A stretch of DNA of 64,000 nt from the IMG/VR virus record IMGVR_UViG_3300049846_001597, positions 8,313 to 72,312 of that record. One strand, written 5' to 3'. The notes below the pieces were generated by a model. It had not been told where the DNA came from. It searched no databases and saw only the letters and a list, made by a program, of their open reading frames with translations. This DNA is from a virus. How positions within the stretch are numbered: the stretch's first letter is position 1; each line of letters begins with the position of its first letter. Position numbers and translations under genes: made by a program. This document shows positions 35,448 through 40,648 of the stretch, piece after piece.

Positions 35448-36043
35448 TGGCGACCTCCACGATTCCGCATCTGCCGCAGCATCGCTTCCGCGATGAGGCG
35501 GGTTTCCTCTTCACCAAGCCGCTCAGCGCGCGCAATACGACGACGAACATCAGCGTGATGCGGCGCACGCTCCATGCGCTCAAGAGTGCGGGCGGCATTA
35601 AAGCTGTCGCCTTTGCCGATGGCCCACGCCGCCTCCGCGCGCGCCGCCTCTTCGCGTAAGCCGATGCGGCGCAAATGGCGGATGTATTTCTGAAAAGCTT
35701 TGACGCTCTCTTTTGCACCCATGCGCAAAAACGAGCTGCGACCAGCCGCCATCCCGCTTAGCGCGCCCAAGGCGGCGGCCCCGCCCACTGTCGCGCCAGC
35801 AAAATTGCGGAAGCCTTCATGCTCGCCCTCAGTCAAATCATAATCAGACAAAGCGCTAACGCCGCCTGCGATGGCGTAGGGGTAAAGCCCAACGGGCAAT
35901 CCGAGCATGCCTCCAACTTGTGCGCCGCCCGCGAGCGCGCCTTCGGCCCGGTCTAGCGCGCCAGACGCCGTGCGTTGCACGCCGCGCATGGCGGCGCGGG
36001 CGCCGTCTTGCAACGCCAATTGGAGGGCGGCCCGCAGACTCAT
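35444..36043 (-). CDS. Glycine-zipper protein
   Basis: GALAGGAQVGGMLG and GATVGGAAALGALSG. Confidence 0.6.
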   Translation of the reverse strand: MSLRAALQLALQDGARAAMRGVQRTASGALDRAEGALAGGAQVGGMLGLPVGLYPYAIAGGVSALSDYDLTEGEHEGFRNFAGATVGGAAALGALSGMAAGRSSFLRMGAKESVKAFQKYIRHLRRIGLREEAARAEAAWAIGKGDSFNAARTLERMERAPHHADVRRRIARAERLGEEETRLIAEAMLRQMRNRGGRQ

Positions 36044-36717
36044 CGCATCACATTCAAATCGACGTCGCCCCAGCGGTCGAAGCCCATGACTTGCTCGTAG
36101 AGGGTTTGGGCGCGCTCACGGATGCGCTGGCTGTTGGTGTCGATCAGCTGATAATCTTCACACAGACGCGCCGCGAGGCAGATGACAATCGCCTCAGCAA
36201 ACTCCTCAGGGACGTCGATCTCGTCGTTGCCGGAATCGACAGTCTCGATCACCCGCTCGTAGCCAACTTTGAGCGTGTAGGTTCCGCTGCTAAAGGAGGG
36301 GATGGGCCACAGTGTTACTGTTGTTGAGGTGCGCTGCTTGTCGAGCACGTAAGCGACAGGTTGGCCGGTATTGGCTTTGAAGATAAACCGATCCCAATCC
36401 TGACGATCCCATTCGGTGAGCGGCAGCCGCTCCTCGCCATCCTCCAGCCAGCGCACATTGTAGACGAGGCGCGGGCGCGGGTTGAGCGTGTAGGTCTGCG
36501 TCCCAGAGACAAGCGTCACCGTTTGCTCGGCGCGCGTCCACAGATTGGGGCCTTCCGTTGACCACGACTTCAACATCTCGTTGAAGACATCGAGGCCGTT
36601 GCTCAGCTCATCAGCTGACGCCTCAAAACCTTGGCCGAGGACGCCAAGCTTCTGCAACGCGCGCGACACGTAATGGGCGGCGGTTTTTTGATAATCGATG
36701 ACGCCAGAGAGGGCCAC
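36040..36717 (-). CDS. Head-to-tail adaptor (gp4-like)
   Basis: RALQKLGV...GLDVFNEMLKSW...G.P..Y...LWPIP...PEEF.EAI..LA.RL. Confidence 0.8.
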   Translation of the reverse strand: MALSGVIDYQKTAAHYVSRALQKLGVLGQGFEASADELSNGLDVFNEMLKSWSTEGPNLWTRAEQTVTLVSGTQTYTLNPRPRLVYNVRWLEDGEERLPLTEWDRQDWDRFIFKANTGQPVAYVLDKQRTSTTVTLWPIPSFSSGTYTLKVGYERVIETVDSGNDEIDVPEEFAEAIVICLAARLCEDYQLIDTNSQRIRERAQTLYEQVMGFDRWGDVDLNVMR

Positions 36718-39309: not shown

Positions 39310-39846
39310 TTACAGACGGAAGCGCACGCCCACCGTCAACTCGTCAGCGGCGACGTCGAAGCCGCCGAAGTCGCTATCCATATCGGCTTCGATGCGGCGG
39401 AACTGCACCTCGCCAATCATGCGCTCGCTGAGCCGGTAAGCTCCGCCAACCGCCCAATGATAACCTTCACCGGAGGCGTTCACGGAGCCGAAGCCGAAAC
39501 TGGCTTCGCCATCCACGTAATCGATGCCGACGCCGCCAAACACCGAAGCGTTGTCGCCGACAGGCAGATCGAGGTAGGCGGTGGCGTGATAATCAAGCGC
39601 ATCGGCGTTGATCGCGCCCGCGAAGTCGCCGGAGAGGCGCGCGACGCCAGCCTCAACACGCACCGGCCCGACGCCCGTGCCGATAGCCGCCCCGTAGGCC
39701 AGCCCGTCATTCAGTGTAAGGCCGCCTACATCCGCCGAGGATTGGCCGATGGAGAGCTTGCCATACCACTCGTCGGCGTGCGCGTTGGGTGCGATAAAGA
39801 CCGGCCCAAGCAACGCCGATGCGATCAGGAGTTGAGAGATTTTCAT
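39310..39846 (-). CDS. Eight-stranded outer-membrane beta-barrel (OmpA/Ail/Lom-like)
   Basis: Signal peptide ending AHA, alternating beta strands, RVE, terminal VGVRFRL. Confidence 0.85.
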   Translation of the reverse strand: MKISQLLIASALLGPVFIAPNAHADEWYGKLSIGQSSADVGGLTLNDGLAYGAAIGTGVGPVRVEAGVARLSGDFAGAINADALDYHATAYLDLPVGDNASVFGGVGIDYVDGEASFGFGSVNASGEGYHWAVGGAYRLSERMIGEVQFRRIEADMDSDFGGFDVAADELTVGVRFRL

Positions 39847-39891
39847 GGTTCCCCGCTTCAATTGAAGTCCGGGGAGGGTTGAGCGGGTTCG

Positions 39892-39907
39892 GTTAAGAAG
39901 AGGTTAC
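39892..39907 (-). promoter_or_regulatory. CtrA-like box, within a 16-bp repeat also at 40599-40614
   Basis: Minus strand GTAA-N7-TTAAC; second copy TTTA-N7-TTAAC. Confidence 0.5.
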
Positions 39908-39908
39908 G

Positions 39909-40151
39909 TCACCAATAATAGCTATGTGGCTTATGATTTCCAAGCGGCCACGCAATGCTATCTGGATCAGCGCCAGCGCGCAGTTTTGCCAAGAGCATGC
40001 GGTTATGCGCGCGCTTTGGTCTTGTGTGATAAACGATGTCCCACCAGCGCGGCCAGTTGCCCATCCAGTTGTAATATTTCGCGCGGTCGTGCTTATCCAG
40101 GCTGCGGCCTGATGAAGACGTGCGCGGGCGGCGGCGTTTGAAGTTCGCCAT
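39909..40151 (-). CDS. Small basic Trp-rich protein
   Basis: GGAG RBS; MANFKRRRPR...WMGNWPRWW...HTRPKR...YYW. Confidence 0.7.
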   Translation of the reverse strand: MANFKRRRPRTSSSGRSLDKHDRAKYYNWMGNWPRWWDIVYHTRPKRAHNRMLLAKLRAGADPDSIAWPLGNHKPHSYYW

Positions 40152-40189
40152 GACAATGTGGCTCCGTTGTTACCTACATTGTCATGGCG
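40146..40189 (-). promoter_or_regulatory. 14-bp perfect hairpin with Met-Thr-Met-amber uORF (40174-40185) sequestering the downstream start codon
   Basis: CGCCATGACAATGT / ACATTGTCATGGCG; AGGAG precedes the uORF. Confidence 0.7.
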
Positions 40190-40202
40190 TTCTCCTGTGA
40201 AT

Positions 40203-40278
40203 TGGGGATAAGGGTTGGATTCGCACCAACGGCCTCCGGGGTATGAACCCGGCGCTCTAACTGCTGAGCTACCTTATC
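40203..40278 (-). tRNA. tRNA with CAT anticodon (Met or Ile2), encoded CCA
   Basis: GATAAGG/CCTTATC acceptor, GCTC/GAGC D stem, CCGGG-TTCATAC-CCCGG, GTTGG-TGCGAAT-CCAAC; 76 nt. Confidence 0.88.
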
Positions 40279-40360: not shown

Positions 40361-40447
40361 TTAACCCCAGCCTTCGATGCCAGCAGAACCGCCGTCGTCA
40401 ATCTTCACGGTGCCGCCCCAGCCCTCAATCAAATAACCTTTGCGCAT
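40361..40447 (-). CDS. 28-aa peptide with two IEGWG motifs
   Basis: GGAGG RBS; MRKGYLIEGWGGTVKIDDGGSAGIEGWG. Confidence 0.55.
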   Translation of the reverse strand: MRKGYLIEGWGGTVKIDDGGSAGIEGWG

Positions 40448-40526: not shown

Positions 40527-40648
40527 AAGTAGACGTTGGGTTACTAGGAAGGGAAGAAAGCAAAAGATAGAGTCTCTTGCAAGATCAACCCTTGCGCCGG
40601 TTCGGTTAAGAAGACGTAAACGCGACAGGCGACTTGTCATAAGTAGGT

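Follow-up and report, generated by a model that had tools for sequence, protein, structure and literature searches.

An 80-residue basic protein encoded in the viral DNA analysed here is preceded by a leader whose mini-ORF is paired, through a hairpin, with the start codon of the protein. Judged from sequence, the best-supported reading is that the element would represent a variant form of two known kinds of control, translational coupling and minigenes, and it accompanies a protein family that is widespread in phages and uncharacterised. We propose that the tRNA gene, leader and protein gene together form a self-contained translation-control cassette. We put the probability that it operates by ribosome-operated unmasking, that is by translational coupling via a start-stop or mini-ORF, at about 55%. 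The stretch analysed (the window) comprises 64,000 nucleotides of a 72,312-bp viral record which is estimated to be 86% complete.

Layout and setting of the cassette

The cassette occupies positions 39909-40278 on the minus strand. It begins with a tRNA gene (40203-40278) with a CAT anticodon and an encoded CCA end, identified as tRNA-Met(CAT) by ARAGORN and matching Rfam RF00005 with 67.7 bits; it is the single tRNA that ARAGORN finds in the window. The CCA end is followed after 6 nt by a Shine-Dalgarno (SD) sequence AGGAG (SD1, 40192-40196), and after a further 6 nt by the mini-ORF ATG ACA ATG TAG (Met-Thr-Met-amber, 40174-40185). An inverted-repeat search and the predicted fold place the start and all of the sense codons of the mini-ORF in the 14-nt 5′ arm of a stem (40176-40189), with SD1 outside the stem and predicted to be single-stranded. 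The 16-nt loop (40160-40175 in the predicted fold) carries an A/C-rich stretch immediately 3′ of the amber codon and a second SD, GGAG (SD2, 40162-40165). The 14-nt 3′ arm (40146-40159), located by the same search and by homologue covariation, contains the main ATG (40149-40151) and the first bases of codon 2. The main ORF, assigned from the ORF list and from homologues, runs over 39909-40151 and encodes a basic protein of 80 amino acids. Every element named in the initial annotation, namely the tRNA(CAT), AGGAG, Met-Thr-Met-amber frame, 14-bp stem, GGAG loop and 80-aa ORF, was found in place. The protein is indeed basic and Trp-rich, its pI being 11.0 with 17 Lys plus Arg and 6 Trp in 80 residues.

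The two arms are 100% complementary and 16 nt apart, and of the window's 11 inverted repeats of 13 nt or more they make up the longest perfect one. Folding bears out the hairpin. A 91-nt stretch is predicted to fold at −33 kcal/mol with z = −4.79 (0/200 shuffles are equally stable), and the 57-nt leader alone gives z = −7.2 against 100 shuffles. Apart from the tRNA, searching the Rfam cis-regulatory families gave sub-threshold matches only, all of which overlap the tRNA itself. An intrinsic terminator or attenuator at the stem was considered and rejected. The terminator scan lists none there, and the 3′ arm is followed by coding sequence without a T run; terminator-like sites are listed at 40526-40501, 40681-40660, 40580-40560 and 39252-39221. 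A DNA operator was rejected as well. It is complementarity rather than sequence which is conserved among homologues, and the leader alignments contain G-U pairs on the sense strand, which indicates RNA structure rather than a DNA operator.

In the Rfam alignment the first base pair of the window tRNA is paired and three G-C pairs adjoin the anticodon loop. The T-loop reads UGCGAAU where UUCGAAU is usual, and a C precedes the CCA end. The pairing at this end speaks against an initiator of bacterial type, and the three G-C pairs are initiator-like. The tRNA could be either Met or Ile2.

The cassette sits within the structural module of the phage. It has a capsid protein gene (PF25209, 40742-41659) upstream on the same (minus) strand and, on its downstream side, a gene for an SU10-type adaptor (36040-36717). 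No GenBank phage matches the capsid protein at more than 51% identity; relatives of this protein include those of Caulobacter, Roseobacter and Pelagibacter phages. Directly 3′ of the 80-aa ORF is an outer-membrane β-barrel gene (PF13505, E = 2e-15; 39310-39846, minus strand), which has a signal-peptide-like N-terminus and, placed in the middle of a structural module, looks like a moron. At one homologous locus (L001) a β-barrel homologue is also found beside the family gene, on the opposite strand. An all-against-all comparison of the flanking ORFs in the fetched loci found no partner gene shared beyond close relatives.

We note two further features of the region. A 15-nt sequence is repeated exactly, in direct orientation, at 39887-39901 and 40600-40614 (minus strand), and its two copies flank a block with the 80-aa gene, its leader, the tRNA and two terminator-like hairpins. 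The motif has five matches at up to three mismatches in the window against 0.5 expected, and a similar motif occupies the corresponding place in relative L005; it may mark an edge of the cassette or serve as a promoter or regulatory element. A 28-codon Gly-rich ORF (40361-40447, minus strand), preceded by a strong GGAGG at good spacing, is situated between the second of these hairpins and the tRNA.

Conservation of the leader among homologues

The comparison rests on 45 full-length family loci, one of them the window, taken from collections of viruses, genomes and metagenomes. The loci were retrieved by N-terminal peptide patterns, so that the counts given here refer to those 45 loci only. At 70% protein identity they group into 27 lineages, which the counts treat as independent. 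A mini-ORF was scored where a strong SD is followed after 4-10 nt by AUG, 0-2 further sense codons and a stop. Such a mini-ORF lies 27-36 nt before the main AUG (AUG to AUG) in 24 of the 27 lineages, 23 of these 24 leaders having a GGAG-type SD. The initial annotation had treated the uORF and hairpin as features that homologues should not lack, and most lineages do retain the mini-ORF. The pattern is rare elsewhere. Of 556 other ORFs in the same sequences, 4 have it upstream, and among 10,500 random positions it turned up 67 times. When every fetched locus and the window were scanned with a less strict version of the leader pattern, the hits comprised 34 family starts and three others.

The mini-ORF consists of AUG alone in eight lineages, AUG plus one codon in 11 and AUG plus two codons in five, the window among the latter. 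The codons after AUG specify T-M, S-M, L, N, R, T, K, T-K, Q-D or T-R, and the resulting peptides (M, MT, ML, MN, MR, MK, MTM, MSM, MTK, MQD and MTR) are unconserved. The distance from the mini-ORF stop to the main AUG is 18-28 nt. The window frame ends in ATG-TAG followed by an A/C-rich linker, and this tail matches the bare start-stop of locus L010; the window mini-ORF therefore looks like a derived form. In most leaders a G-poor, A/C-rich stretch with AAC repeats separates the mini-ORF stop from SD2 (40166-40173 in the window). This linker may simply keep the loop unstructured.

The three lineages without a mini-ORF are those of L006, L025 and L036-L043. In L036-L043, whose proteins start Met-Asn, a three-tier hairpin of −25 to −34 kcal/mol is found about 60 nt before the family gene start. 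Here a CCUCC (anti-SD) pairs with the SD, and the reading frame is open upstream through a hydrophobic stretch.

The initial annotation had named covariation of uORF and stem upstream of homologues as a check, and the stem does covary, the bare start-stop group apart. RNAalifold on MAFFT alignments, in which gaps behind the mini-ORF AUG had broken the register, recovered no more than a 5-bp core without variation. Covariation was therefore examined on register-anchored data and on a gap-free subset. In the 11 lineages with AUG plus one codon, whose arms are gap-free, 69.9% of cells pair against 64.5 ± 1.8% after shuffling (1/500 shuffles reach this value). Doubly changed cells number 14 in the same set, against 6.4 ± 2.0 (0/500). 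Five pairs carry compensatory changes, and slid registers pair at 25-53%. In a register-anchored permutation test on 12 leaders, 50 of the 84 inner cells were paired where 35 ± 4 would be expected (P = 0.0002), a result which is favoured by the choice of these leaders by eye as pairing with the main start. For 22 unselected leaders, inner pairs form runs averaging 2.27 when a leader is matched to its own 3′ arm and 0.56 when it is matched to the arms of other lineages. The eight bare start-stop lineages behave differently, in that their pairing with the main start is an invariant 5 bp (GCCAU/AUGGC) without covariation. In several of these leaders the predicted partner of the start-stop is instead an intermediate CAUG adjoining SD2. 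Taken over the lineages, the sequence comparison supports the view that the mini-ORF and the stem are selected as a unit.

Transfer RNA genes are present in the fetched flanks of 13 of the 27 lineages and absent from those of the other 14; the fetched flanks span at most 3-5 kb and are often shorter. In six of the 27 lineages, as in the window, the distance from the end of an upstream same-strand tRNA to the main AUG is 50-76 nt. Three loci (L044, L045 and L046) are embedded in arrays of 14-17 tRNAs. In L005, the closest relative, the same capsid gene also lies upstream. ARAGORN detects no tRNA in this locus, but a 13-nt stretch identical to the anticodon arm of the window tRNA remains. The 14-tRNA array of L046, which also holds a family member, includes a tRNA with anticodon CTA (187-260). 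It is of the amber suppressor type, is labelled Pyl by ARAGORN and is of interest beside the amber-terminated mini-ORFs.

Proposed ribosome-operated unmasking and alternative explanations

We infer that the mini-ORF is translated and that its translation switches on the main ORF; a look-up of sequencing runs listed no RNA run containing the sequence. In the proposed mechanism a ribosome would dock on the strong, unpaired SD1 and start at the mini-ORF AUG. Loading would be easiest on nascent RNA, or on RNA fresh from the tRNA precursor, before the 3′ arm exists. The ribosome would enclose the whole 5′ arm (−4 to +9 of the mini-ORF AUG), and the masking stem could then not form. The mini-ORF would end after 0-2 further codons, at a stop placed 18-28 nt before the main AUG, and the ribosome would thus halt short of SD2 and the main AUG. 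Either the same ribosome would then re-initiate at the main AUG, or a second 30S subunit would bind. With no ribosome on the mini-ORF, the hairpin would stay closed and the gene silent.

That a ribosome on the uORF would open the stem had been suggested from the window alone, and modelling is consistent with this. Occupancy was represented by keeping −14 to +13 of the mini-ORF start single-stranded. Over the 24 lineages the modelled cost of opening the main ribosome-binding site (RBS) then averages 6.1 instead of 14.2 kcal/mol; for the window it is 6.5 instead of 27.3 kcal/mol. A saving of 2 kcal/mol or more is seen in 22 of the 24 lineages; L007 and L014 barely change. The start of the mini-ORF is itself in the stem, with a modelled mean opening cost of 13.0 kcal/mol, about equal to that of the main RBS. 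The model therefore needs either co-transcriptional loading or standby binding at SD1.

A different role for the parked ribosome is protection of the message. The mRNA would begin a few bases before SD1, where the tRNA precursor is cut away, and ribosome and hairpin would shield this 5′ end from RNase E-type decay; the main ORF would be affected through mRNA stability, without unmasking. The end of a same-strand tRNA some 10-40 nt before SD1 in six of the 27 lineages is consistent with this explanation. Cis-acting leader minigenes that raise downstream expression, perhaps by keeping nucleases off the message, are also known from axe-txe and the EHEC LEE operons, as described in the available text of PMC8708949. 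Protection leaves the covariation of the mini-ORF arm with the main start unexplained, and the 14 lineages whose fetched flanks hold no tRNA also count against it. We consider it unlikely as the explanation of the leader; protection and unmasking are not mutually exclusive.

The initial annotation regarded the leader as a sensor of translation stress. A longer dwell of the ribosome on the mini-ORF, caused by slow RF1 termination at UAG or by a shortage of aminoacyl-tRNA, would raise output of a protein that counters the arrest. The stop codons are compatible with this idea. The mini-ORFs of the 24 lineages end in UAG in 16 cases, UAA in seven and UGA in one (L003). The main ORFs of the same 24 loci end mostly in UGA (16, with UAA in six and UAG in two), and long ORFs in these G+C-rich loci use UAG, UAA and UGA at 27%, 24% and 49%. 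With lineages treated as independent, which weakens the P values as support for a sensor, the surplus of UAG has a binomial probability of 5e-5 and the shortage of UGA one of 2e-6. The bias fits a preference for stops read by RF1; nucleotide or pairing constraints could equally have produced it, and the L003 mini-ORF does use UGA. The residence of the family gene among tRNA genes is also in keeping with a sensor. The sense codons are not. They vary among lineages and are absent from the eight bare start-stops, thus no particular tRNA can be the signal, and the shortage of Met-tRNA originally put forward is not sustained. The protein, moreover, resembles neither ArfA nor any named family. The sensor idea survives in its RF1/amber form only, and in general we think it quite improbable. 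A more specific version, that the amber-biased mini-ORF gauges the reading of UAG (RF1 against read-through or suppressor tRNAs) and so times synthesis of a basic protein that acts on tRNA or the ribosome and accompanies phage tRNA arrays, seems to us doubtful to a like degree.

The upstream site might instead lower expression. A ribosome bound there would compete with, or block, the main RBS and thereby limit a possibly harmful protein. Closely spaced upstream ribosome-binding sites do attenuate downstream translation in S. meliloti, as reported in the available part of PMC13285730, and an E. coli start-stop cut expression of its host gene by about 16% in the portion of 10.1101/520783 at hand. 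At a spacing of 27-28 nt two ribosome footprints would presumably touch. The AUG-AUG spacing of 27-36 nt nevertheless lies outside the 3-25 nt screened for occlusion in the available part of PMC13285730, and we count this in favour of coupling. A decoy needs no hairpin covarying with the main start, and in the model the main RBS is masked even without a ribosome. We regard occlusion as decidedly improbable.

Lastly, CAUG is its own complement and a C precedes the main AUG of the window, so a masking stem over this start would yield an AUG in the 5′ arm automatically, as the complement of the main start region; that the uORF is such a meaningless by-product is very unlikely, because chance does not predict a well-spaced SD in 24 of 27 lineages, a stop within three codons in all 24, the amber bias or the pairing of start-stops with a CAUG that is not a start.

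The protein family and comparison with known leaders

Six close homologues share the N-terminus of the window protein, which fixes the start codon of the 80-aa ORF. A profile search of 1.84 billion cluster representatives returned 366 clusters (defined at 50% identity) with E ≤ 1e-3, 123 of them with E ≤ 1e-10. In an alignment of 79 members the protein has a basic N-terminal tail beginning Met-Ala, a variable linker, a conserved Trp/His-Thr-Arg-Pro core and a C-terminus of the form Asp-Pro-Asp ... Lys-Pro-His ... Tyr-Tyr-Trp; the median pI of the family is 10.8. The AF2 model of the window protein (mean pLDDT 74.9) contains one confident helix, residues 35-58, and little else.

The initial annotation had suggested an ArfA-like ribosome binder. 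ArfA, alternative ribosome rescue factor A, occupies the empty mRNA channel and recruits RF2. The searches lend the suggestion no support. The window protein has no match in Pfam (E ≤ 1), PHROGs or NCBIfam, nor in a PDB sequence search at E ≤ 1, and Foldseek with the model gave 0 matches in each of PDB and BFVD. Among the 79 members, NCBIfam gave five weak single-member matches only. The ESM Atlas holds only 'hypothetical protein' clusters, from Pseudomonadota and tailed phages. No convincing fused or longer form was found; a single 209-aa protein turned up, and the Met-Ala start inside it suggests that the gene was called too long. A tblastn search for cultured phages with three family members gave one weak match only, in an unverified 3.6-kb record. 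This match (GenBank OR851001.1, our L004, 1440-1500) has 43% identity over the C-terminal half. The distant member it represents is preceded by an 8-codon, UAA-terminated upstream frame and then by a similar A/C-rich linker.

In sequence terms, then, this is a large, unnamed family with no characterised match, which recurs within phage tRNA arrays. The position of its genes among phage tRNA genes hints that the function is connected with tRNA or translation. That the 80-aa protein binds RNA, whether tRNA or the ribosome, is a guess. Our literature search found no paper describing this leader or this protein family.

Several known systems resemble the leader in part. The classic cases of leader-peptide coupling are tap-repA of plasmid R1 and repY-repZ of the IncI plasmids. 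Translational coupling by RNA unfolding and re-initiation has been reviewed as a general mechanism, and in the available text of that review (PMC12548453) the structure covers the downstream RBS, its other strand is in the upstream frame and the distance from stop to start is short, all as here. In our leader a 14-bp stem lies over the main AUG and its complementary strand is at the mini-ORF, in a pairing that covaries. It departs from the classic cases in that the upstream frame has only 1-3 sense codons including AUG, and one lineage in three has a bare start-stop. The stop of the upstream frame precedes the main start by 18-28 nt instead of overlapping it, the main ORF has its own SD, and no antisense RNA is known.

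Start-stops and two-codon frames in bacteria have mostly been isolated cases of uncertain purpose. The lambda bar minigenes belong with the two-codon cases. By retapamulin ribosome profiling in E. coli, 14 start-stop sites were located inside genes, with a small negative effect (10.1101/520783, in the portion available). They share with the present leader an SD-preceded AUG followed at once by a stop, the lack of a product and an inferred regulatory role. The present element differs in lying in a 5′ leader, in being conserved across phage lineages, in being paired to the main start and in being amber-biased. Bare start-stops account for eight of our 24 lineages; the window, with two sense codons after AUG, is not one of them. 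The two-codon leader minigenes, axe-txe mg2 and the EHEC ler/esp mini-ORFs, for which mRNA protection or peptidyl-tRNA drop-off has been invoked, have a strong SD, AUG, one sense codon and a stop, and act in cis on the next gene (PMC8708949, in the text available). Eleven of our 24 lineages have this form; the window has three sense codons including AUG. For those minigenes the available text of PMC8708949 describes no hairpin covarying with a main start, and, unlike ours, they are tied there neither to one protein family nor to tRNA arrays.

The leader also recalls those of erm and cat in that a ribosome on a short frame would free a masked RBS. In erm/cat attenuation a ribosome in the leader frame frees the hairpin-masked RBS, which requires a specific nascent peptide and a drug in the exit tunnel. 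Our mini-ORFs, by contrast, encode unconserved peptides of 1-3 residues, and we found no conserved exit-tunnel peptide.

Coupling, start-stops and minigenes are thus known individually. What is new is a conserved form of leader tied to a protein family of tRNA arrays: a phylogenetically conserved mini-ORF with a covarying partner helix, which is amenable to simple reporters. The leader also marks a large and unnamed family of small basic proteins in phage tRNA arrays, whose non-tRNA content is poorly understood. If the amber preference is functional, gene expression during phage infection would be tied through this element to the status of termination factors. If the mini-ORF did prove to gauge the reading of UAG, leader and protein would constitute a translation-state sensor-effector pair specific to tRNA-carrying phages.
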